The position numbers and the translations under genes are program-made. DNA of 63,952 nucleotides, the filler included, from Platydemus manokwari (Eukaryota), in NCBI GenBank assembly GCA_037951405.1. It is 6 parts of 6 records of this genome, joined end to end, with 100 filler letters (N's around TTAATTAATTAA, not from the genome) between each part and the next. Parts side by side here need not be neighbours in the genome. Positions count along the whole stretch, not along the records: positions 54,388 to 63,952 come from JBBMOY011231432.1; 5 more parts are not named here. One strand, 5' to 3'. Below, in pieces: positions 1,900-63,952 of this stretch. How positions within the stretch are numbered: the first letter of the stretch is position 1; each line of letters begins with the position of its first letter. The notes below the pieces were generated by a model. It saw nothing but the letters and a program-made list of their open reading frames with translations, had not been told where the DNA came from and searched no databases.

Positions 1900-2720
1900 A
1901 CTTCCTGGATAAGGGTTTACTAAGGCACCAGCAACGCTTTCAAAATTTAATCATCGTTTACTGGATGTTTTGTTATTCAATGTTTGTTATTCGATGACAT
2001 ATTGATATATACCGAAACAAGGAAAGAACATGTAGCTATGTTAGAAGAAGTGTTCTGGTGCACCCATGCTTATAGATTTAAGAAAAGTGTAGATAAATGT
2101 ATTTTAATCAGAGAGGGAATTAAACTTTGGTTCATGTCGTAAGCAAAGATAAAGTGAAAACAAATACTGATAAAATTGCTCAAATTACCAATGCTCAAGA
2201 ATCATAAGACTCAAGTCAAAGTTAATATCATTTTTAGGTCATACAAATTACTACAGAAAATTCATCACGAATTATACAAATATAGCATCATCTTTGTATG
2301 TCGTGATATTTGGAAATCATAGAACTTTACAATGGACCAAAGCATATCTTGAAAATTTGACTAAACTGAATACAGCTTTATGTGAAGCACTCATTGTGGA
2401 TTGTGCTTGAGAAATCAGAACAATTATTATTTATTTAGACACAGGTTATGAAGTAATTGGTGCAATGTTTATTCAGATTGCAGAAGATGGATCAGAAATA
2501 GGGATTGTTTGGGGTTGTTAAAGAACCAAGAAAAAGGTTACTAGATGTCAAGGAAAGATTATTTGACCATTCACAAATTTTTAATGTATATCTGGCAATA
2601 TCTTTACCAGAAGAGATTTGTTATACGGTCAGATCATAAAGCCTCAGTATTTTTAAATTCAACAAAAAAATTAAATATTCTTTAGTTTCAAACGTGTACG
2701 GATTATCTCGGATTAGTGAA
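1900..2720 (+). mobile_element. Ty3/gypsy pol relic (RT C-terminus, connection, RNase H)
   Basis: LFDDILIYTETRKEHVAMLEEVF (~1985-2055), SFLGHTNYYRKFITNYTNIASSLY (~2230-2300), LDTGYEVIGAMFIQ, RSDHKA; many stops and frameshifts. Confidence 0.8.
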
Positions 2721-10269: not shown

Positions 10270-10369
10270 NNNNNNNNNNNNNNNNNNNNNNNNNNNNNNN
10301 NNNNNNNNNNNNNTTAATTAATTAANNNNNNNNNNNNNNNNNNNNNNNNNNNNNNNNNNNNNNNNNNNN
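10270..10369. other. Assembly spacer: 100-nt N gap with central TTAATTAATTAA (same at 22085-22184, 34022-34121, 43434-43533, 54288-54387; plain N gap at 53533-53704)
   Basis: Identical-length N runs around a palindrome with stops in all six frames; artificial linker. Confidence 0.97.
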
Positions 10370-27870: not shown

Positions 27871-28530
27871 ATGATACGAGTATCGAAAGTATCGGTTTTT
27901 CTATCGGGTTGATATTTGCTGTTGATTTATTAGTTATTAATGGGCTCGTTTATGGTGCCAACCGGACTCCACACGATTGGCTGCGTTCGTTGGAAGTAGG
28001 TTATAGTGTAATAATAATATAATGATAGAATAAATAACAATAACGCAACTGTAATAAAATATAATTATCAATCAAATTCAAAGCTACAAAATTAGATAAA
28101 CAAATTGATTATTATAATTGTATAAAAATATAACTGGCGAAGTGTGGCTCACTTAACCAGAGGGCAAGGCTCACGATACGGGTGAATCCCACAATGAGTA
28201 CAAACTATTAAAAAGATGGGAGAAAAACGAAGAGATATTTTGTAAATACCGAATCTATCGATATTCTATGAAAATCAATCAATAATTCTATTTGTCCGTC
28301 ACTGCTTAAATCGGTTGGCTTGTGGAGGAGATTTCTATGCTTGTCTTGTTGCTAATTAATTTGTTCTCGTCGCTCGTAGTTCCTGCTTGATGACTGCTTA
28401 GTCTGATAAATGTTAGTTAACTTTTTGGCGATTTGTTCCGTTTTCTCCGGCTGCTTTTATACTAATTTCTTTATAACTGTAACCAATCACGATTTTTTTA
28501 TATCTGAAATTTTAAAATCCTATTTTTGTT

Positions 28531-28840
28531 TTCTGATCTATTTTTGTAATTAATAAATTCTATTATTAGTTTCTAATCTATTTTTGTAATTAATAAATTC
28601 TATTTTTAGTTTCTATTCTATTTTTGTAATTATTAAATTCTATTTTTAGTTTCTATTCTATTTTTGTAATTAATAAATTCTATTTTTAGTTTCTAATCTA
28701 TCTTTGTAATTAATAAATTCTATTTTTAGTTTCTAATCTATTTTTGTAATTATTAAATTCTATTTTTAGTTTCTATTCTATTTTTGTAATTAATAAATTC
28801 TATTTTTAGTTTTTATTCTATTTTTGTAATTATTAAATTC
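28531..28840. repeat. 40-bp minisatellite, ~7.7 copies
   Basis: Unit TTCTAATCTATTTTTGTAATTAATAAATTCTATTTTTAGT with few variants. Confidence 0.95.
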
Positions 28841-29339
28841 GATTTATAGGATTTTCATGCATTTTTGGATTTTAATTATATGATTATGTTTGTGGGCGTA
28901 ATATATCGTTGTGTGACTCATTATGGATTCGGATCTTAACAAAAATGTGAACAAGCGACAAAGCATCATCAACAGAAATGATTGCTCAAAAAAGGAGATA
29001 TTATTAAGTACTGGCGAGAAAATGAAGAGGTCTAACAGAAATAAAAAGCCAGCAATATACATGAATTACCTAGACGCAGGCTTTTACGAAGACGGACGGA
29101 TGTAATATATGTGTATATATGTATGTACTTAAGAATCTTTATCACACATTGCGAGAATATGTTTATTTTTAATTTTTATTAACTCTTTGATTTTCGTTGA
29201 ACTCATCATGAAGTTTGGCAGATTTTTGTTATTGGTGGAGTTAAATCCAATGATAAGCAGTTATCACTGTGAAGTAAATAAGGACGGGGTGATAATTCAT
29301 GATAATTTATTTGGGAAATTCATTCAAGTAATAATATAT

Positions 29340-29445
29340 TTCAGAAAAATTTCTGCAAAATTTCTAAAATATTTCTGAAAATTTTCTGCAAAACTTCTGA
29401 AAAATTTCTGAATTATTTCTGAAAAATTTCTGAAATATTTCTGAA
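29340..29445. repeat. Degenerate ~11-12-bp tandem repeat (TTTCTGAAAA-like)
   Basis: Direct reading. Confidence 0.8.
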
Positions 29446-29949
29446 AAATAAATTTCGAGTTGATATGCTTGATTGTTTTAATAATCTAAAAATGACCTTG
29501 AGGTTTATGTTGTGAAAGTGAAATATTCTAAACGATAAATAAGGATCATAACATTCAGAAAGAAAACATTGATGCAATGAATAATTTATTAGTTTATATT
29601 ATCGCGTGTTTTATTCGAGATAGCCTGGGGCGATGTTCAAAATTGAGTCCATTTTTTGCAAGTGATCAAGAATGTGCTAGTTTCAACGAGATTTGCATTA
29701 AGAAAGGTGGGAGAAATTTGAATTGGAATACAATGAATGAGTTTGTAATGGATGATGATAATTGATGTGCTTGTTTATATTTATAATTTCTGAACAAATC
29801 GATTGGATGAGTCTGATTGATTGTGATAATTAATGGCTATCTGGACAATATCATCAACTGTATTGATCATAATATCAATATCAATAATAGATAATTACTA
29901 TGTGATGATTAAGTAAAGTAAAAGCCCAATTATATAATAAATCAATGAT

Positions 29950-32160
29950 ATTTATTGAATATTTTAGAAAATAGAGAGTGCCAATTAGTTCTCGACGCTT
30001 GTGAGCGTAAGATCTTTGATAATCGACTTATAATTGATTTATTATGAATATATTTCAGAATGTCCACCAAATAATTTCACAGTTACTGGTTAATAATTGA
30101 TTAAGGAATTGATTTTATAATGATTATCGATAAATATTTATTTAGTTCTTATGGATGTCGTAACTGTTAGCAAAGGTGATTCATTAATATTGTTATTGAT
30201 TTTTTGAAATATTTCCCTGCTTTATATCAATAATATTTCATTTATTTTATCAATAACCAATCAATAATCATATCTATAAATGGTTGTCATAGCTACGAAT
30301 ATCATAATTTAAAATGTATTCCTTATAAATGACAAACAACACAGGAGTTGATAAAATCTTCATCAATTACAAGTGAAGATGTTTTATGGAAGATGGGATG
30401 CCAGCAAATAAAAATCTCTTTCATCATTGATTATAATAGTTGTGTTGAATTAAATAGCTGTTTATTTTGGATATTGCAGAGATATTAGATGGAATATTTC
30501 CAAGGTAACTGGTGCTTATATTTGCCAATCATTTTTGAATCATCATCTCAGTGGATTGCTTAAGAGTTATTATCAAGTGATTTATTGAAATAAAACTGTA
30601 ATGGATATATGTGCAAATTTACATGAGATCTGAACGAAATAAATGCTTTGATAAATGATTAAAGATAACAAAGCAAGAAGAAAGGGAAGTCTAATTCCTC
30701 AGATTGCCAGATATCAATTGGAATAATTTTGAATGAAAAATTGAAGAAATAGTGCTGAGAATTTGTTGAAAAACCAGGTTATTCGGTTTTGGAAGATGTA
30801 TTGTAATTCACTGTTGGTTACTGTGGCAACAGTTGATTGGTCTATAATACTTGTTTTAGATTTTCTCAAATTAAAAGAATTCAATTCAAAGTTTACAACC
30901 CAGTTACCGCATATTCAACCGATATTAGATTCACTCATTAAAAATAATCAAGCCAGTCATGTTATCAAATGGCCCTCTCCGTTAAATATGATTGGATAGT
31001 TTTGTGACAGCAGATTATCACTGGAATACTGCTCCAGGATTACTTTATAATCTGATAAATATCATTTTAAGGATATGTTTAATCGAGTATTTGTGATATT
31101 TGTTGATGATATGCAAATGGATGATAAATCAGCAGAAAAACACAATAGAAACATCAATAAGGTTTTGAACAGATCATCCATATGAAAATATAATGCAGAA
31201 AAATGGTCAAATCTAGGAAGCGAGTCAGAAACGACAATTTTAAGATTGGTTTTCAGAATTTATCTGAATGGATTAAACGATTAATTTCCTGTGTTTCTAC
31301 AAGACGAATCAAATATTTCGGAAGCTATTTTCAATGGTTGGATTTATCGATATGAAATTCAAAAGTCGGATAGAATTAATGTTGCCAGTAGGTTTGAATT
31401 CATTTCGTCTTGTCAATACCAAGCAAGCAGTTTACCAGAAAGGATGGTGTGAACAGTTCTGGACATGATTATGACCACTCTTCAATCTCAGAACGTGCCT
31501 TCGGTTTGGATTAAAGTGATATTTCTCATACCGTGCATCGTATAATATCATGGTTTAATCCGACACTAGTTATTAGAAATGCTGTTTGGAAAAAGCGTTC
31601 TTCTGAGAAACTAGTCAACATTATCTAATTATCTGCGAAAATTTGATCTATTTAAGAGTAGAAGATCGAATTTTTGCGGATTTAGAATAGATGTTGGTCG
31701 GAAAGAAACCTCAAAAGCTGACAAGGAATGGAATAAGATAAAATATCAACCAAATTTCATTGGCACAAAAATAAATGCGGAAAATAACAACATATTGAGG
31801 GATGGAGAGATTTTCTGAAGTAGCATTATCATTAGATGCATTAAAATAAGATTGTGACAATGTTGGAATTAAACTAGATGAATTCGAGATTGGAAGATGA
31901 TCAAGAATAATTCGGCAATAATTTATCGATTAACTATTCGGTAATTTACTATGAGTAGTTAGACGAGATATTTGATGATTATTCCACCAAAGAGCTGGCT
32001 CCTAACAGATTAGTAGGTTGCGTGTAATAAAATATGGATATTATAGTAGTAATAATCAATTCTGATAACGGTACGATTTAGTGCGATGACAATGAACAAA
32101 TGCGTGATGTATGAGTTTAAGACATGATAAAAATCGCCGGAGAAAACTAATGGAAGCTGT
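29950..32160 (+). mobile_element. Highly decayed Ty3/gypsy pol relic
   Basis: QLVLDAC (protease-like, ~29985), QLPHIQPILDSL (~30900), VIFVDDMQMDDKSAEKHNRNINKVLNR..NAEK (~31090-31205). Confidence 0.55.
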
Positions 32161-32202
32161 ATTTGTGAGATATTTTAAACGAATTAAAATTTTAATTAGA
32201 AT

Positions 32203-32399
32203 TTAATTATAATTATATATAAAATAATATTTATATAAAATTAAATAATAATTATATATAAAATAATATTTATATAAAATTAAATAATAATTATATATAA
32301 AATAATATTTATATAAAATTTAATTATAATTATATATAAAATAATATTTATATAAAATTAAATTATAATTATATATAAAATAATATTTATATAAAATTA
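32203..32399. repeat. 39-bp pure-AT minisatellite, ~5 copies
   Basis: Unit AAAATAATATTTATATAAAATTAAATAATAATTATATAT. Confidence 0.93.
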
Positions 32400-34555
32400 T
32401 ATTTATTTGTTTACATATTTGTATTAAAATAGATACCTGGTGCCTTGATTTTTCAGTTTGTTTTTTAACGTGTGATTTTTAAATTAGTAACGGATAACAA
32501 CAGTATTCATATCGATTTTCATGAGATCATTTGGATTATTGTTTTACAGCGAATCTCCTGCCCGAGATTGATGGAAAATTATTGATAAAATTAATAATAA
32601 TATTTACCATAATTATTTATATATTATTTATTTTATTATTTTATACATTATATATTATTATTTATATGAATATTTAATATTCGCGTGCTTATATCTAGCA
32701 ATACATTGCTGTGATAGATTTGAGATTAATGGGGGGAGGGGGCGGTTCAAGATTTAGGAATTTATAAAAGATATTAATAATAAAATAATAAATACAACGA
32801 TTTTAGATCACTCGAGGAGAATCGATGCATTGAAGAATGAATCAGGTATGACAATTTTACTTGCTTGTCTGTGTTTGAGCTGCACATCTGGATTGTCTGG
32901 GTTGAAATGAAACTAGTTGTTGATGTTTCTTTCAAATAACGATCTTCTCTATGACAACTGATATTTGGTCATGTACTTGATTGTTATTGTTGATATTAGG
33001 GTAGCCATTTAGTTGATTCATTCAAAAGGTCGATCTTATGCTGATTGAGATATACTTGTGTGCACGTGTTAATCACATATAACAATAATATAATTAATAA
33101 TCCAGATCACAATATATTCAAATGTGATGAAATCTGTTCCGATAATAGATATTTTTCATAATAATTATTGACATCAACACTCAATATTATATCAAAGACA
33201 CATTTTGAATTTTTGGATATCGATTTATTGTAATTGTTATAAATCGAGATAAAATTTGTTACCATGGAATCATCACGTCTCGACACGTAATAGAGTCTTG
33301 TATCTGTTTATCATCATCATATAGTAACATGTCTCATTCTATGACATGAGATAATGATGATGGCAATATCCAATATTTTGCAATTAGAACTGACGAGTTG
33401 CTTATTGTGATCCAGTGTCTGTTTATTTGAAATTCAATCGATAATTGATCAATATTTGATTGCTATTATATTATTTCAGGTCGAGATTTCATTATGATGA
33501 TGGTTTTGTGTGAGACTTTTATTTACAATCGACTAATATGATAAACTAATTTTAGTGTTTATTTTAGTGCTGTTATTGTGCTTCCAGTTTTTTGAAATCA
33601 AATATCGATTTTGTAGTAAGCACATACATGTTTATCATATTATTTTGATTTGCTCATAAGTCATGTCATTGATTATTGATGATCATATCAATCGATAAAT
33701 AAATTATAATTTCTTCCCCTGATCAAAGATATATTTGGCATTTCTTGTGAATACTATTATCAAGATGCTTCATCGACTTTTTCTAAAAATAATGACGTCA
33801 TCATAATAATTCTAATTCATGCATCACATGACACCGATAATAAATAGAGAATAAATGGATAATTCAATATCAAGAAATTGTGGAGAACATCAAATACTTT
33901 AAACAGGGATAAACGTGAAGATTATAAATATAAATTATTATTAATAATTATTTGCTTTCAGCGAAATTGATTCACCAAACAACTAGAAGAGGTAATTTTC
34001 TATATTTATGTATCGATAATGNNNNNNNNNNNNNNNNNNNNNNNNNNNNNNNNNNNNNNNNNNNNTTAATTAATTAANNNNNNNNNNNNNNNNNNNNNNN
34101 NNNNNNNNNNNNNNNNNNNNNAAAATAAAATATTATCAATTTTTTCATACAAATAAATATTAATATTAATATCAACTTGAAACACATAACACATAATATT
34201 GTTAAAGCGTAAATATCAACATGTAAAATATTGTCAGAAAACATATCAATTGTTAAAACATATCAACTGTCTTCATTCATTGTTCAGAATTTATAACGAT
34301 AAAGTTTATGCCGATTATTATTGATCTCGACGTCTACGGCGATGTTGTGAGGCTGTTGAGAGGCGAAATTTCTATAGTTGAGCTGCTGTCAATTCAATCC
34401 ATACTCAAAGATATCCTATGCGCATATTTTATACATATGGGAATCCTAACTGGGTTACATAATAGAGAAGATATAACTTTATTATATTTATATTTTACAA
34501 CTTTAGATCCTGTTTTATTTTTGGGATTTTGATTTTAATTATTTTATGAAACTAA

Positions 34556-40399: not shown

Positions 40400-40960
40400 T
40401 TCCCATTTACTGATGTCATATTTATTGGCGGTGAAAAATTTCGTTTTTATAATTTTTAAATACGACCCAATCAATTAATTGATTTTTCATTGGTAAGCTA
40501 TATTCTATATAATGGTTTTTTGAACAATTTAGTCTCATATTGTTTCTATTCTTCTTGCATTTGTACTAATTCTTTTAAGTTTTTATGTTCTGCCAACACT
40601 TTTGGACTTTTTAACGCTGGTGCAACTCCTCTTTCGAAATGATTCATCAGTATTTGATCTCTTCCCTCAAGTGTCACATATTTAAGATCATTTAAGCTTT
40701 TCTAGCCAATTGCCTTAATACCATAGCATATTCTCCTACGGTTTCCCCTGATAATTTATATCTATCCAAGAGCCGCTTTACATAACACTGATGGACTTCT
40801 ACTGTTATAACCGATTTTTTCCTCAACTCCACTATTTACTGTGCATAACTTTTTATATCATTAAATTTTAGGTAAACATTTATAGGCCGTAAAATATAAT
40901 GATAGATATTGACTCTTCTCTGCTTCATTCCAGCCATGTACATCCGTTATTCTGAAGAGG
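40400..40960 (-). mobile_element. Ty3/gypsy gag relic
   Basis: DVHGWNEAEKSQYLSLY, SGETVGEYAMVLRQLARK, LEGRDQILMNHFERGVAPALK (capsid-domain pattern). Confidence 0.65.
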
Positions 40961-55939: not shown

Positions 55940-57055
55940 AAAAGTTCGTCACCATATAAAACATATATGGTTTCAGTAAAAAAAGAAAGATGGAGAAGTG
56001 CGGTTATGCGTAGACTACAGTGAGTTGAATAAGAAACGAAGCAGGATGTATTCCCACTGCCAAATATTAAGGAAATATTATAACAAGTTAGATTTAAATA
56101 AAGGATATAATCAGGTAAAAGTAACCTAGGGAGACATAGAGAAAACAGCTTTTTGTCTAGGAGAAGGGTTATACGAATATTTAAAGATGCCTTTTGGATT
56201 AACAGGAGCACCAGCAACGTTTTAACGACTTATAAATACGGTGTTAACAGATGTACCACATGCCATGATTTACATAGACGATATATTAGTCTATTCCGAA
56301 AACTTTGACGATCATATTATAGATGTAGGAAGAGTGTTTTTTAGGGTAAAGAAGTCGGAACTGAAAATAAAACCTACTAAATGTGAATTGGGCAAAACCA
56401 GGAAATATTCTTAGGAATGGCAGGATATTATAGAAGATTCCAGGAAAATTATGCACGTGTTGCTATGCAAATTTATGACTCTATGAAGAAAGCAGCAGAA
56501 GAATATAGACAAATGAGAAACAAAAAGGGAGTTGAAAAGGAGAAAGTTAAGGGAAAAGGAAAACGAAGTAAAACGGAAAGTATGTTAAAGATAAAGTGGG
56601 GAAAAGAGCAGCAACAGGAACGAAACTTAACGCAAGCACCAATATTAAGATATCAAAATATGGAGAAGCCGTTTATAATAATCACTGATGCAAGTGGAGG
56701 CGCACTTGGAGCCGTGTTAGGACAGTAAGACGAGGGAGAATCGGATCACGCAATAGCCTACGCCACCTACGCTGAAGGGAGAGGAAAAAAATTATTCAAC
56801 AATGGAAAGGAAATGTTTAGCAATAATATTTGCGTTAAAAGAATTCAGACAATATATATATATATATATTATGGAACGGAAATAATATTAAAAGCTGATC
56901 GCAAACCATTAGAGAGCCTCATGAAGCATAGATATACATGGACCAGACTAATAAAATGGGCACTTAAATTACAAGATCATAATATAAAAATAATGTACCG
57001 ATTAGGAAAATCAAACGCCAATGCAGATTCATTATCACGATTACCAGAATATTAG
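55940..57055 (+). pseudogene. Ty3/gypsy reverse transcriptase and RNase H (frameshifted)
   Basis: [47 protein letters not shown] (56271-56282), FLGMAGYYRRF, TDASGGALGAVLGQ, DRKPL..RLIKWALKLQ..NANADSLSR. Confidence 0.95.
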
Positions 57056-57249
57056 AAATAAGTGCGGTGGAAACTTTTGTAAAAAATATGTTGAAGTCAA
57101 CAGGGGAAAAAGACATCGAAGAGGCACAGATAAGAGATAGTAATTTGAAAAATATAAGGAGAAATATAATAAGAAGGCAAGAGAAAAGTAAAAAGACAGG
57201 AGTGGTTACGGATAATGAAATGATACCGGCAGGATACCAGATAACAGCA

Positions 57250-58536
57250 GATGGAATCATGAAATATCAAGATGAAGTAAATCTACTAACGGTGATACCA
57301 ACAGAAATGCAACAACATCTGTTGCTTGTGTATCATGATGGAGCATTAGGAGGGCATTTATCAAAGAAGAAGACCTTGGGGAAGATAAGGCAGAAATATT
57401 ATTGGGAAAATATGAATAAATATATAGAAGAATGGTGCAAACAATGCATTTTGTGTTCAACAAGAAGAAATCCATGAAGAAAAAGAAAAGTACCTCTAAA
57501 ATCAATACCGCCTGCAACAAGGCCAATGGAGTTATGTGCCATGGATGTCATGGGACCGCTACTAACAACAATTAAGGGGAATTAGTACATAATAGTCTTC
57601 TGTGATTATTTCACCAGAACAGCAGAAGCATTTGCAACAGAAAACCATAAGGCAGAGACCATAGCAAAAATTCTGATAGAAGAGATAACATTTAAGTACG
57701 GAGCACCAAGTAAGTTATTGACAGATAGGGGAAAAGATTTTTTGAGTAATGTTATACAAGAAACAACTAAATTATTTAAAATCAAGAAACTAAATACATC
57801 TCCATATCATCCACAAACGGATAGATTGGTGGAAATATTTAATCAGACTTTACAAAATATGTTATCTAATTTCGTAAGGCCATGTTTATTTGCGTATAAT
57901 ATGGCAGTAAATGAAACAACGGGATATTCACCATTTTATTTAATGCATTTAAAAGAAACATTTCTACCCATAGATTTAACCTATCTACCAGCGACATCAC
58001 AGTTAATGGAAGAACAGGAATACGTCAGAATAATGAAGGAAAGATGGAATAAAGTATACCAGAGGGTTCAGTTGAATAGCATGTATAGACAGGAGCAATA
58101 TAAGGACTACTATGACCAAAAAGCAAAGGTTCATAACTTCAAAATAGTGGATAAATTGAGAGTCTATGCACCAGAAGCGAAAAAGGGATTAACAGCGAAA
58201 TTACAACGACTATTTAAAAGACCATATAAGGTAGTAAAAGTCACCGATACAAACCTATATGTTATTAAAAATAGGAATGCGGATCCAACAGTAGTAAATA
58301 TAAATCGATGTAAGAAAGCAGAAGACATACCAGCATCGGAGTACAGAAATAAACTTCGACTAAACCCGAAAACAACTCAGAAAATTATGATGGCAATAGA
58401 AAATCAGGGAGAAGAAGATGAAGAAGAGCAATCATGGGATAAGGAGAATGTATGCAATGATCTAATAGAAGAGGAAGACAGGATAAGACGATTAGAAAAA
58501 CAATTAAGGGAATCACGATTAAAAAAAAAGAAGTAA
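57250..58536 (+). pseudogene. Integrase (HHCC zinc finger, DDE core, GPY/F-like motif) running into an acidic/coiled-coil tail
   Basis: YHDGALGGHL..QKYYW..CKQCILC, AMDVMGPL, TDRGKDF, TSPYHPQTDRLVE, FKRPYKVV. Confidence 0.95.
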
Positions 58537-59719
58537 ATAGATGAGATAGAGAGATATGCAGAGATGAAATAGAGATAGAGATGAAATAGAGAGATATGCA
58601 GAGGAAAGAGAGACAATAACAGGAAATGGAAAGAAAATATTAAAGGCCAGCCAAGTTGTAATAGAAGCAATGAGACACAAAATTGAGTGGAAAACAATAG
58701 ACAACGTCACACGAAACCTGATGGGTAATATGACAATAATAAGTGAAGAAAACACAACAACGACAGTAGGAAAAATAATGGAATCATCAGACAACCGCTG
58801 GAAAGAGAAAGTGAAAAGATATGAGGAAGAAGAAAGGGGAAAAGTAAAAGAGATACTGGAATGGGTTGATCCAACACCCATAGTGCCAAGAATGATAATA
58901 AAAGAACGGGAGCCGCCACAACGACTGTGGAGATTGATTCCGTAGGATGAGGAAGTAAGGGACAAGGAATCAATGGCGGTGAAGAGGTCGTATGAGCACA
59001 TGATACGACAACATTTAGAGGAAGAGCAGTTCCCTGTGAAGAAATGTCCGACAAAGTGACAGTGGATAGAAGAAGAATCAGGCCCTAACATGTTGGTGGA
59101 GCAGACGGAAGATATGGATTTGGGAATAGAAGGCATGGATGTAGATATCAGTAGCTCTAATGAAGAAGAGGATCTGGGATCTGTTAAAATGGAGCTGCGA
59201 ATACGAGGTAGCTATGAGGAAGGAGGAAGAAGAATCCAAATGGGAAAGGAAAACGAAGAAAGAAATGGAGAAGATACAGAGGAAGGTAGAAGAAATAAAA
59301 GAGAAAATGAGGGAGTTTGAGGAGAAAGCAAATGAAATAACAAATAAGTGGGATAGTGCGGAGGCACTACAAGGACGAATATGAGAGTTACAACAGGATC
59401 AGAAAGAAATGAAAGAGATGCATGAAGAGGCGAAGAAAATGGATGTAACAATAAGGAAATAAAATGAATGGGTAAGAGAAAGGAGGAAATGGAGGAAGAA
59501 ACAGAAGAAGAAGTCTTAGAAATAGACGAAAAAGAGGATTTCGAAATAAAGTTTGAAATGTGAACACCGCCACCCTCACCGAAAATAGGAAGAAAGGAAG
59601 GTGAAGAAATATTAACAATGGAGCTGCTGGAGGCCACTGCAGACGTGGACATAGATAACAGCATCCCATGTGCACACATTCTGCCAATCATCTTGAGGAT
59701 GAATAATAGAAAATCTGAA

Positions 59720-60192
59720 TTCCGTGGCAAGCCCTAAAGTAGTGCTGGGCATGCACCCCAAGTACACAACATATATACACGTAACAACACATGCATGACA
59801 ATCCCATATAAATACCCCTACATTTATAACAAAACACAAAGCACCAAAAGCCAAACATAATCCCTAAATATAATCCCAGTTAAAGCGCATTGACCCTGAG
59901 TGTGGACTGCTGCGATGAACAAATAAAAGAAAGAATTATCAAAAACAAACCTCAAAAACAAACAACTCAAGCTTGCAACCAAGTAACAATGTTCGACAAT
60001 AATCCGTGATGAATAAACAATAAACTTTCCATTTTGAATATACGTGATTGATAAACAATAGCAATAGACTTTCTGTTTGATAACATTTTCTGCTTAACAT
60101 TTTCTGCGCAAAAATAAACATTTTAGTCTTGAATATTGCAGTATTATTGAGTGTTTTATTTATTATTTTTATGTTAAAATCTGGCAGCGTAG
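59720..60192 (+). promoter_or_regulatory. Non-coding LTR-like interval with candidate TATA (59807-59814), AATAAA signals and PBS-like TGGCAGCGTAG (60182-60192)
   Basis: Only break in the A/G-biased coding composition of the element; TGG-starting motif ~70 nt before the ORF1 ATG; boundaries not defined. Confidence 0.45.
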
Positions 60193-60251
60193 AAGATGAA
60201 AGGTGCGGAGAGAGATGATGAATAAATGAGCAATAAATAATATAATTAATA

Positions 60252-62680
60252 ATGAGTAAATATATGGAGAAAGAAAAGAATAAGATAGTGGAAAAAATGG
60301 CAATATTTTTTAAGTTTGATGAATTACAGGATAATGCATATATAATAGATCAAGGTTTTTCACAGTATGAGCCAGATAATATGTGTGCAATAATTCACAC
60401 CAAGACAATGCCAAAACCACTAGTAAACAATCTGAAGCCAGGACAAAAAACATTGTATGGGGAGGAAGATGAAGCCCTCAACATATGCATGGTGAATAGT
60501 GAGCAAGAAATAAAGACAATGAGACAGAAAAGTGCTCGAGAAGAAATGGAGTTAGTCAAAGAAATACAAAGTAGCAGTAGCACTTATATTGGAAAATATT
60601 CCAGTAAAACCAGCTCTAACAATGCCGATAACTGAGAGAATATTGCCAAAAGTATTAAATGTGCCAGCAACGTCACCAGTATACGTCCCATCAAAAGTGG
60701 TAACGATGCAAGGACATGCTACAAGTAACAAGGATGTTGGATATTTAGGACAATATTTAGTCAATAGGGAAATTGACTATCAGGCCATGGACGAGTTTAA
60801 TAAAAGGAAAAAGACGAAACGTTGTGGAGGTCATGATCCACCAAGGAGAAGGATCAACAAGGGAGCCACGAAAAGCCAGGGCATTTTTTAAATGGAAGTC
60901 TTTGAGATTTCATAGGACAACCATTCCAGAGTTACCATTTACACATGATGTGAAATGGGGAGAATTACCTGTAACAAATAATAGACTTGCATCTAGTGGC
61001 AAGTCAGCCTAGATATCCACATGTGGAAAAATTAAGAATGTTGGAAACGGCGGAAATACGATTTATACTAAATTGAGCCAGATAGGAATGAGAATGGATA
61101 TCTCATGTACAATTATAAAACAAGAGTAAATAAGGAAGAATTATTTGTGGAAGGGAATTAATTAAAGGACTATGAATTATGAGGAAGACGAGTAAATTAT
61201 ATTTATAATGAGTTTGCCAGGAGACGTGGTAGTAGAAACAATGAAGGAATATATTAGACAAAATTTCTTAATGAGAGAACATGTCAATAAACTAAGCATT
61301 ACGCTTTATAATAAAGGAGTAAGACTGAGAAGTAGAGACCTATTAGAACAATACCATTTAAACCGTACAATTTTAGACAATTTAGGAGTTTTAATTAAGT
61401 ATAAAGAACCGGTTGAAAAAGAAATAAGGGAATTATATATAAATGCCAATCAAATAATAGAAGTGGATTTGGATGAAGAAGAAGTTACTCCAGTAACAAA
61501 GAGTAGTGAGGAGAAATCTCCGAAATCAGCAAACTCTAAATCAAGTGAGTTAAACTCCGACGAGGATTTTTTTAAAGGCATTGGGATTGAGAACGAAGAA
61601 AAGAGATAGTATAATGGATATGGTGGAAAGAATGCCAAAGAATCAGCTACAAAAGGAAATAGAAAAGAAATACTTATGTTTGGGGTGTATAGGAAAGCAA
61701 AAACATAAATGTCCAAATAAAGAAAGTATAGAAGAGAAAGCGGAACCACGAGAAGAAATAATCAAACAAATACAAGAAGAGCGAAAAGAGGCATTGGCAC
61801 TAGAAAACAGTAATAGCAAGGAGCAAGAAAGCATGTCAAGGAAAAAAATAGTATATCCATATAGGGAAGGAGAGTGTAATAAAACAATAGAAGAAGAGGA
61901 GGGCGCCATATTAGAGGAGATAAGTGATGAAGAAAAAGATGTAACAGAGCCACCAAGAGAAGAATTAGGAGAGGAAGAGTTGCTGGAAGTTCTGGGAGAA
62001 GAAAATCATGAAAGATATGATAATTATAAAGAACTATTCCAATATTTTGATCAAGAATTATTAAATGAAAGCCAACAAACACATACAGCACAGCAAACCA
62101 ATGCAGAAACCAAAGACAAAGGCGCAGCCACACGAAAACCTAGAGGTAGACCAGTAGGATCAACGAATAAAGCAAAAAATCCAGAACCGACAGGTTACCC
62201 GCAAATGGGGTAGAAGAAGTACCTGTGGAACAACTTTTCAGCATACATCAGGGAATACACTCAAAAAAGGAGACAAGGAAATAGAAAAGATGAGACAATA
62301 TTTGAGAGCAGTAAATAAATTACAATGTACGCTCAGCCGGAATGAACGGGAACAAGTAAATAGATTGAGTAAGCTAACAAAACCAATTAAAAATTCATTA
62401 AAAGAAATGCAACAATGCAATAACAAATAGGAGTTAAAAATAGTGAGGAAGTCATTAAATGAAGAAGAAAAGACAGTGTGGAAAATAGCGGTCACGCTAA
62501 AAACATTTAGTAATCACGTAGATATGGGTATAATAGACATAGACGAAGGAGCAGAAATATTATACGATGAATACGAAGATAGAGTAAACGAGTTAGGAGG
62601 ATGGACCCCAGTAGTTACCACGCAATTAAAAGGAATGAAAAAGCCAGAGCGTGAAAAACCAGTACAAGGAACAGGATTTA
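60252..62680 (+). pseudogene. ORF1 of the retroelement: long frameshifted protein of unknown function (Gag position) with Cys/His cluster, acidic tract and AT-hook
   Basis: Abutting + strand ORFs 60252-60635, 60589-60891, 60773-61012, 61208-61609, 61581-62213, 62443 onward; CLGCIGKQKHKC; RKPRGRPVGSTNK. Confidence 0.6.
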
Positions 62681-63875
62681 CTTTGGCAACAATAGTTCAG
62701 ACGCTATTCGCGATATACGTAATAAGCAATATATGGGGTGTGAATGCTGGAATTAGTGGATATGATTGTAGTAAACCACGGTGGGGGAAGAAATACTCTC
62801 TATTAGATATTGAACAATGCCCAGAGACATATCCAGTAAATATTACACAATCAAGACCAAAGAAAATGTTTGTGTATCAGGAATCTGAGTTTCTATTTGA
62901 AAAAGCAAGGGAATGTAAAATTACATATCAAGAAATGCTTTTCCATTGTTCATACAAGAGAGGAGGATACACGGCATGGTTGCCAGTGCCAGAAAAAGCC
63001 GCATTTGAGAATGAAATTTATAAATATCAAAAGGGATACAAGTAATAGTGTCACCAGGACGAATAAACAGATACACGGTAAATCAAGCAGGATGGTCTAG
63101 TAATGGGGGATATTGTGAAGGTGGAGATTACATGATAGATGGAAAGGTAGTAAAACACGTGGTGGCATATAGACATTATATTATAGAATTGCGAGAATAT
63201 CAAGCTACATTTGATGCAAAAACAAAGAAAATGACCACATGGACGCATTGCGAATATGATAATTCAACATGTGATATAAGTCATCCATACAAATGTCCAT
63301 TAAAGCTGCTCAAAAAGACGGAATTTAGAGAGATTAAGGGGAAAATATTTAAGGAAACTAAGTTCTCTAAGGAATAAAACTTGGATGCACCAACAGAGAC
63401 AGTAGAAATTAGGATGAAAGAAACACCAATAGTGTATATGGCCGATCGGACGAGTGGTGCTAAGAGGTTCGTTCACAAGGGAAAAGATAAGAAATGCGCA
63501 CAGCAGGTCATAGCGACAAATTATAAAGGCATACATCTGAGTAAGAACGAAATAAAAGATGCTAAGACAAATAGATAAACTGGATATCAAGTTATCCTAG
63601 TATTTTAACAACAAGCTTGACTACTTTTACCATCTCAATCAGGGGTATCTAGAGAAAATGTACATGGAAATGATGTTAAAATATTGTAAACTAAGGCTTA
63701 AGATGTTGCAAACACAGTTGGCATTGGCGGTGACAAATCCCGAACTTATAGCCCCGTTAATATTTGATGATAAGGGAACATTCGCTAGAGTAGTGGGAGA
63801 ATTCATTTATACCTTCCAGTGTAAAATATTAAACAACTTATTGGTCAGAAAACATGAATACTGTACCAACGATAT
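62680..63875 (+). pseudogene. Internal signal peptide plus N-terminal half of the chuvirus-G/gB-like glycoprotein
   Basis: TLATIVQTLFAIYVISNIWGVNAG then ISGYDC (GYDC 62758-62769)..YSLLDIEQC, ARECKITY..FHC, GGYCEGGDY, YFNNKLDYFYH, YCKLRLKMLQTQLALAVTNPELIA..GTFARVVGEFIYTFQC..EYCTND; two frameshifts and in-frame stops. Confidence 0.85.
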
Positions 63876-63952
63876 GGTGTACCGGTATGAAATGAGCGTT
63901 AAGATACAAATATGTTGGTAGGGAAGATTTGTTGTGAACAAGCCTTAATTTT
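63876..63952. mobile_element. Opposite end of the same mariner-like family (TIR lacking its first ~3 nt)
   Basis: GGTGTACCGGTATGAAATGAGCGTT (63876-63900) is the exact reverse complement of 54433-54457; internal sequence differs beyond the TIR. Confidence 0.8.

Follow-up and report, generated by a model that had tools for sequence, protein, structure and literature searches.

A decayed, circularly permuted Ty3/gypsy element of Platydemus manokwari and the single polyprotein probably encoded by its ancestor

We describe here a retroelement in a stretch of 63,952 nucleotides (filler included) from Platydemus manokwari (assembly GCA_037951405.1), made of six parts of genome records joined end to end; this whole stretch is called the window, and all positions are counted along it. 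The element, which occupies 54458-63875 on the plus strand (9,418 nucleotides), belongs to Ty3/gypsy; the copy has decayed and is circularly permuted, opened inside its glycoprotein gene (G), with the element order N-terminal region, G and pol. We consider it likely that the active ancestor made the N-terminal region, G and the enzymes as one polyprotein, predicted to cross the membrane of the endoplasmic reticulum (ER) twice, of which the window holds a decayed and permuted copy. An initial annotation of the same DNA had proposed such an ancestor, running from open reading frame 1 (ORF1) through a signal, G and its membrane helix to protease, reverse transcriptase (RT), RNase H as well as integrase, and our results support it: this is the likely ancestral state because intact relatives encode that whole order in one protein. 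The features concerned, in element order, are these.

62677-62748, plus strand: internal signal, from hydropathy, with a predicted signal-peptidase site after VNA
62749-63875, plus strand: N-terminal two thirds of G, matching PF24664 positions 9-401 in three pieces, interrupted by stops and by two or more frame changes
54458-54988, plus strand: C-terminal part of G, matching PF24664 positions 477-593 (E 2e-23) and relatives by tblastn, frameshifted at least once
54921-55712, plus strand: linker and retropepsin (DTGA, catalytic Asp at 55413), matching PF13975 (E 1e-11), in one open frame
55907-56414, plus strand: RT, by Pfam and tblastn, with stops and frame changes
56387-57055, plus strand: broken RNase H, by PF17919/PF17917 and tblastn
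56983-58536, plus strand: integrase (H2C2 finger and core), matching PF17921 (E 1e-19) and PF00665, with two stops in 427 codons

The gene order, the identity of these domains and the one-protein architecture of the relatives are established. An integrase search restricted to proteins of 990-3150 amino acids, which favours long proteins, returned 96 matches, seven of which combine PF24664 and pol in one protein, six of them among the best 15. An independent search with G, made without a length limit, gave 115 matches. In the G tree, built from the window and 73 proteins that each span 380 or more profile columns (74 rows, with the near-duplicates P0100, P0015 and P0098 dropped), the window falls inside a 24-row clade (SH 95) that contains all 18 fused rows. 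The protease follows G in the same protein in 18 of the 23 relatives of this clade, and five of the 23 end inside G; counting the unselected G search alone, 11 of 16 clade members are fused and 5 of 16 end inside G. Outside the clade none of the 50 rows is fused, most being stand-alone glycoproteins with N-terminal signals. The integrase tree, which keeps 78 of 92 rows, places the window with the same proteins in a 14-row clade (SH 99). Introns cannot explain the fusion in P0101, since this protein of 3735 amino acids lies on a contig of 11,515 nucleotides, which leaves at most 310 nucleotides for them.

At the upstream end of G, the initial annotation had read an uninterrupted frame that passes from about 80 hydrophilic residues into a hydrophobic segment and then into GYDC, and this held up, positions included. 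The frame at 62431-63045 is open for 204 codons, and the other two frames over the same interval have 8-10% stops. Its first 80 residues have a Kyte-Doolittle mean of -0.61, its most hydrophobic run of 19 residues begins at 62677 (1.68), and VNA-G and GYDC (at 62758) follow; the PF24664 match in this frame begins inside the signal segment (E 6e-8). Across the three plus-strand frames of the unit, hydrophobicity reaches 1.6 or more in only three stretches, namely this signal, the membrane helix of G and a stretch at 60087. Internal signals of relatives (n=27) have a hydrophobicity of 2.86, against 2.53 for the N-terminal signals of stand-alone G proteins (n=49), and both kinds stand at an equal distance from the YDC motif. 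With P0100 (a duplicate) and P0177 (which falls outside the clade and lacks a hydrophobic core) excluded from the signal statistics (n=25), the -3/-1 small-residue rule is obeyed 2-3 residues before YDC in 21 of the 25 internal signals, over a background of 15%, and the VNA of the window fits it. The sequence pattern supports the initially annotated cleavage by signal peptidase as a prediction.

The same segment bears on another explanation, in which translation of G begins at a start codon of its own, on an RNA that is spliced or subgenomic; the signal would then be of the usual N-terminal kind, and the upstream frame would belong to ORF1. In Drosophila errantiviruses, env RNAs are as a rule spliced. 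An ATG at 62635, in frame, with a purine at -3 and 14 codons ahead of the hydrophobic core, could serve as such a start; Met occurs within the 20 residues preceding the core in 9 of the 25 relatives, and the annotated protein P0099 begins with a Met at the signal. However, Met is absent from those residues in 16 of the 25, the upstream frame of the relatives is continuous for up to 1,340 residues, and G would still run on into pol in the fused relatives. We regard this explanation as improbable, although an own start for G could exist as a second route alongside the polyprotein.

As for G itself, PF24664 matches four pieces of the unit in total, and the model of the relative P0104 (pLDDT 78.5) matches herpesvirus gB (E 6e-13); by sequence and by model, G is a gB-like class III fusogen of chuvirus/mononegavirus-like type. 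Its membrane helix lies at about 54851-54907 (hydropathy 2.42) and is followed by a Cys-rich tail and a stop at 54986-54988. The tail stands directly ahead of the protease frame, which places env upstream of pol in the unit, and the Ty3/gypsy order of protease, RT, RNase H and integrase then extends along 55371-58536 according to Pfam, collinear with the relatives in tblastn.

The join between G and protease is broken in the window. The G frame ends in CCICPS and a stop at 54988 and overlaps the protease frame, as had been annotated; the overlap with this frame, at 54921-55712, is 68 nucleotides. From 54989 to the catalytic Asp the protease frame has no stop, and the other frames have 8 and 21. 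Sibling contigs diverge from the window at 54980-54982, where they carry letters absent from it, and one sibling contig viewed at the junction has no G-frame stop in a short stretch read by eye. From helix to protease there are 154 codons in the window and 92-345 in relatives. The frameshift and the stop at this junction are likely decay. Alternatively, G would end at a real stop, and pol would be reached by a programmed frameshift in the 68-nucleotide overlap, or from a start of its own, lowering the ratio of enzymes to fusogen. Retroelements commonly down-regulate pol. The frames do overlap and a slippery heptamer lies at 54923; moreover, P0110 ends just past the membrane region, by a stop or by truncation, and P0003 and P0007, which start upstream of the protease without G, could be separate pol frames. 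Yet this heptamer, the only one, belongs to the -1 class, and slippage by -1 would leave the G-tail and protease frames unjoined; siblings have junction sequence that is missing in the window, and the viewed contig lacks the stop; 18 of 23 clade relatives are fused, and the window copy is broken throughout. The programmed frameshift, initially kept as an alternative, is disfavoured by these observations, and we find this explanation very unlikely. In the integrase tree, P0007 and the fused P0101 are sisters, but the record of P0007 has a small module of signal, domain and helix in place of G ahead of the protease.

Between ectodomain and protease, the 18 fused relatives have a single strong helix (mean 2.08), and behind it a weaker, Cys-containing stretch whose mean is 1.35, with values of at least 1.6 in 2 of the 18. 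A single polyprotein with another topology would result if this Cys-rich stretch were a second membrane span, or if the signal were an uncleaved anchor, and its processing would then be unlike the alphavirus/flavivirus pattern. Some gB-type ectodomains are indeed flanked by two transmembrane domains (PMC13524379), and four of the 25 signals miss the -3/-1 rule. Nevertheless, stand-alone G proteins share a similar weak second stretch (1.24; 1.6 or more in 5 of 31), a second span would place RT and integrase in the lumen, and the -3/-1 site keeps a conserved, constant position, just as it does in N-terminal signals, so that such a topology appears quite unlikely to us.

For the polyprotein that crosses the membrane twice, we infer insertion, cleavage and release as follows. 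The N-terminal region, which includes Gag in most complete relatives and accessory domains of which a Bcl-2-like one is the last in many, would be made in the cytosol. The internal signal would insert, G would be threaded into the lumen, and signal peptidase would cut after VNA; the membrane helix of G would stop transfer, and protease, RT, RNase H and integrase would fold in the cytosol, tethered by the fusogen tail until the retropepsin releases them. Since signal peptidase would sever the enzymes from the capsid part, packaging as Gag-Pol would not be possible. It is conceivable, although we lean against it, that each fusogen chain instead brings one set of protease, RT and integrase into the particle, attached to its cytosolic tail, and that the leftover signal becomes the tail anchor of a viral Bcl-2-like protein.

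Besides the ATG at 62635, the end of P0110 and the records of P0003 and P0007, several points weigh against one ancestral polyprotein of this kind. Cleavage and topology are predictions, read from hydropathy and a motif rule. Among the sibling contigs, no copy of the element's own family is seen open from G into the protease, and the one viewed at the junction is deleted further on. The architecture of the relatives is known from protein records, not from their DNA, and these relatives are distant (26-48% identity in G, about 45% in integrase). Six of the 13 integrase-clade relatives have no G in the protein record, four of which start inside pol and look broken. Both trees were made by FastTree only, and the window row fills 33% of the G alignment. 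A scan of metagenome contigs with alignment A3 gave 80 loci, none of them with G (0/80). Long terminal repeats (LTRs) were not found in the window, nor was any match to Gag, with Pfam or with profiles from 4 and 9 relatives, in a region that is decayed. Gag is present in relatives of the clade, e.g., P0013, P0028, P0101 and P0112, and in most complete relatives; it may have been lost from the unit. In addition, contig scans with P0098 in metagenome contigs, and with P0104 and alignment A3 in viral contigs, found no relative, and word-index protein searches with the signal/G piece and with the protease frame gave no match, which is weak evidence.

The unit is placed between an N-run gap ending at 54387 and the end of the window, its start being 45 nucleotides past the gap, and it is flanked by two repeat arms.

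54433-54457, no strand assigned: left arm of a perfect 25-nucleotide inverted repeat, adjoining the break in G
63876-63900, no strand assigned: right arm of the same repeat, adjoining the break in G

We read the unit as circularly permuted because the halves of G are complementary, because the inverted repeat is present at both breaks and because a sibling contig joins the ends. The two halves lie at opposite ends of the unit, and when both are compared with intact relatives by tblastn, the tail takes up again almost at the residue where the head breaks off. A single sibling contig links 63876 to 54461 and then runs on to the protease linker; one contig also links the two repeat arms directly (54462 to 63878). 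The 25-nucleotide inverted repeat has two matches in the window and none in 100 shuffles, with no further copy inside the window. No long direct repeat was found within the unit, as expected for a permuted single unit. Summed contig depth is about 37,000 in the left-arm bin and about 41,000 in the right-arm bin, compared with 56-1,544 inside the element; the end bins are roughly thirty times deeper than the interior, depth being a hint only, and on this hint the arms are probably the end of an abundant host repeat. Such an abundant inverted-repeat element probably broke G, and tandem duplication, reinsertion of a circle or assembly collapse would then have produced the permutation. The stretch is covered by 2290 contig records from one sequencing run at a range of identities, and the element family is therefore multi-copy. 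The window copy is dead, as its stops in RT, RNase H, integrase and G, together with several frame changes, indicate.

The remainder of the unit comprises the region behind integrase and that ahead of the signal.

58537-59700, plus strand: acidic, purine-rich, coding-like extension behind integrase, without family match
59701-60245, plus strand: meeting of the 3' and 5' parts of the element, with a change of composition and no Rfam match
60246-62430, plus strand: N-terminal (ORF1) fragments, with a weak DUF7659 match, a SUMO-like lead and a GRP motif
62341-62622, plus strand: candidate Bcl-2-like domain, from a profile of nine relatives, crossing the stop at 62428-62430 in one frame

Just ahead of the signal, the candidate Bcl-2-like domain scores 7.8 bits against the profile of nine relatives, above all of 1000 shuffles (1000/1000), a value that is not significant window-wide and that comes from a region picked after the motif was seen. 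A direct search of 62158-62730 in Pfam and PDB sequences gave no Bcl-2 match. The nine relatives share a Bcl-2-like domain, with weak Pfam matches (E down to 8e-5). For the model of P0132, all listed Foldseek rows belong to the Bcl-2 family (E 0.025-0.3), as do the nine best VIA rows, at middling Z values of 6.4-7.8. The approximately 80 hydrophilic residues before the signal are thus probably, judging from profile and model, the second half of a Bcl-2-like domain, and the run of the match across the stop at 62428-62430 suggests that this stop is decay. Further upstream, 61196-61480 is a ubiquitin/SUMO-like candidate (atlas score 0.80 at rank 16), for which the profiles of the relatives gave no match. 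A GRP motif, presumably AT-hook-like, occurs at 62139, upstream of the signal, and likewise in 7 of 25 relatives (P0001, P0008, P0010, P0101, P0102, P0105 and P0118).

Behind integrase, the stretch 59701-60245 could be an LTR/leader or a decayed membrane module. It includes a hydrophobic stretch at about 60087-60170 (hydropathy 3.1), of a kind found in the host at 0.15 per kb per strand. In many relatives integrase is followed by another signal-like stretch, then by a small domain and a last membrane helix (P0004, P0008, P0010, P0013, P0028, P0101, P0107 and P0109); their polyprotein may cross the membrane four times, and the stretch in the window might be a remnant of this module. Two to four retropepsin-like domains per polyprotein are seen in P0001, P0008, P0010, P0102 and P0103, and in some of these one such domain lies behind integrase, with C2H2-like fingers between. 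The window yielded no tRNA gene, and the element gave no match to Rfam.

Elsewhere in the window, 1990-2667 (plus strand) and 40695-40835 (minus strand) hold remnants of another gypsy RT/RNase H and a weak Gag-like match. A short Cys-rich frame at 45639-45839 (plus strand) resembles a host-gene exon of the LDL-receptor class A type. N-run gaps lie at 10270, 22085, 34022, 43434, 54288 and 53533-53704, and in five of these gaps the N runs are separated by an identical short AT spacer; tandem repeats occur at 28456-28895, 29329-29459 and 32152-32441, with periods of 40, 11 and 39 nucleotides, respectively.

The initial annotation had called this strategy unusual for retroelements. This claim is weaker than it was put, as env before pol has already been published for flatworm elements. 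A model of signal-peptidase processing and packaging was not found in the literature searched (Sacco 2022 and Grohme 2018, outside that search, may discuss cleavage and topology). We place the unit in the GAG-ENV-POL gB-type group, as a decayed member with a Burro-like layout; it is not filed as Burro because it fails the Burro size. The planarian Burro/GYPSM1 elements, reported by Arkhipova and Yushenova in 2019, encode one polyprotein with Gag, SUMO-like and BCL2 domains and env in frame before the protease (PMC6431247). As in the relatives of our element, their env lies in frame between N-terminal region and protease and is related to mononegaviral fusion glycoproteins, a Bcl-2-like domain stands just before env with a ubiquitin/SUMO-like one further up (here seen in relatives), and decayed fragments are reported too (PMC6431247). 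In contrast, Burro exceeds 25-30 kb, with an internal region of up to 25 kb and an ORF of 4,900-5,100 amino acids (PMC6431247), whereas the unit measures 9.4 kb, and Gag, zinc knuckle, MATH, BIR, ankyrin and dUTPase were not detected in the window. The Burro env is in frame with both neighbours; the window copy is broken, and the join of G and protease is found in 18 of 23 clade relatives. The available part of the Burro account contains no discussion of a signal sequence or topology (PMC6431247).

Chary and Hayashi (eLife, PMC13524379) described GAG-ENV-POL elements of gB type in flatworms, nematodes and bryozoans, and reported that GAG-ENV-POL elements are not monophyletic. Their Platyhelminthes C1a errantiviruses share with the unit a Ty3/gypsy pol and an HSV/gB-type env before pol; they are intact and multi-copy, unlike the broken and permuted window copy (PMC13524379). 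Counted by eye and without gaps, window positions 63090-63275 share 31 of 62 residues with the env row of Smed_errantivirus_3 (PMC13524379), compared with 30 of 62 for the best database protein; this resemblance points to a flatworm as the likely host. The word 'polyprotein' is absent from the main text of that paper, where GAG, ENV and POL are treated as ordered ORFs (PMC13524379). No named protein of the nematode NERV was among the database matches. The NERV that Sacco et al. described in 2022 reportedly have a continuous gag-env-pro-pol ORF. They resemble the unit as metaviruses with env before pol and a glycoprotein captured from an RNA virus (cited in PMC13524379), but their hosts are nematodes, and, by eye, the first 10 nematode env rows resemble the window G much less closely than the flatworm rows do (PMC13524379). 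In Atlas virus of Ancylostoma ceylanicum the envelope is part of a 2828-residue polyprotein with predicted helices and cleavage sites; this element, however, is BEL/Pao, with a C-terminal env and a class II fusogen, and its enzymes are not downstream of a membrane passage (PMC9094657). The mosquito Anakin has a chuvirus-like glycoprotein in an LTR element and also differs as BEL/Pao (PMC7642597). Troyka was rejected as a match, as the available account gives it no envelope (PMC12440569).

The locus itself adds little, the layout being published and the copy dead, and the interest lies in a putative mechanism across the whole clade. If the proposed processing is true, capsid, fusogen and enzymes would be fixed at one to one, and Gag would be separated from Pol at the membrane. 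Intact natural relatives with a conserved signal-peptidase pattern make the question of ER crossing testable.

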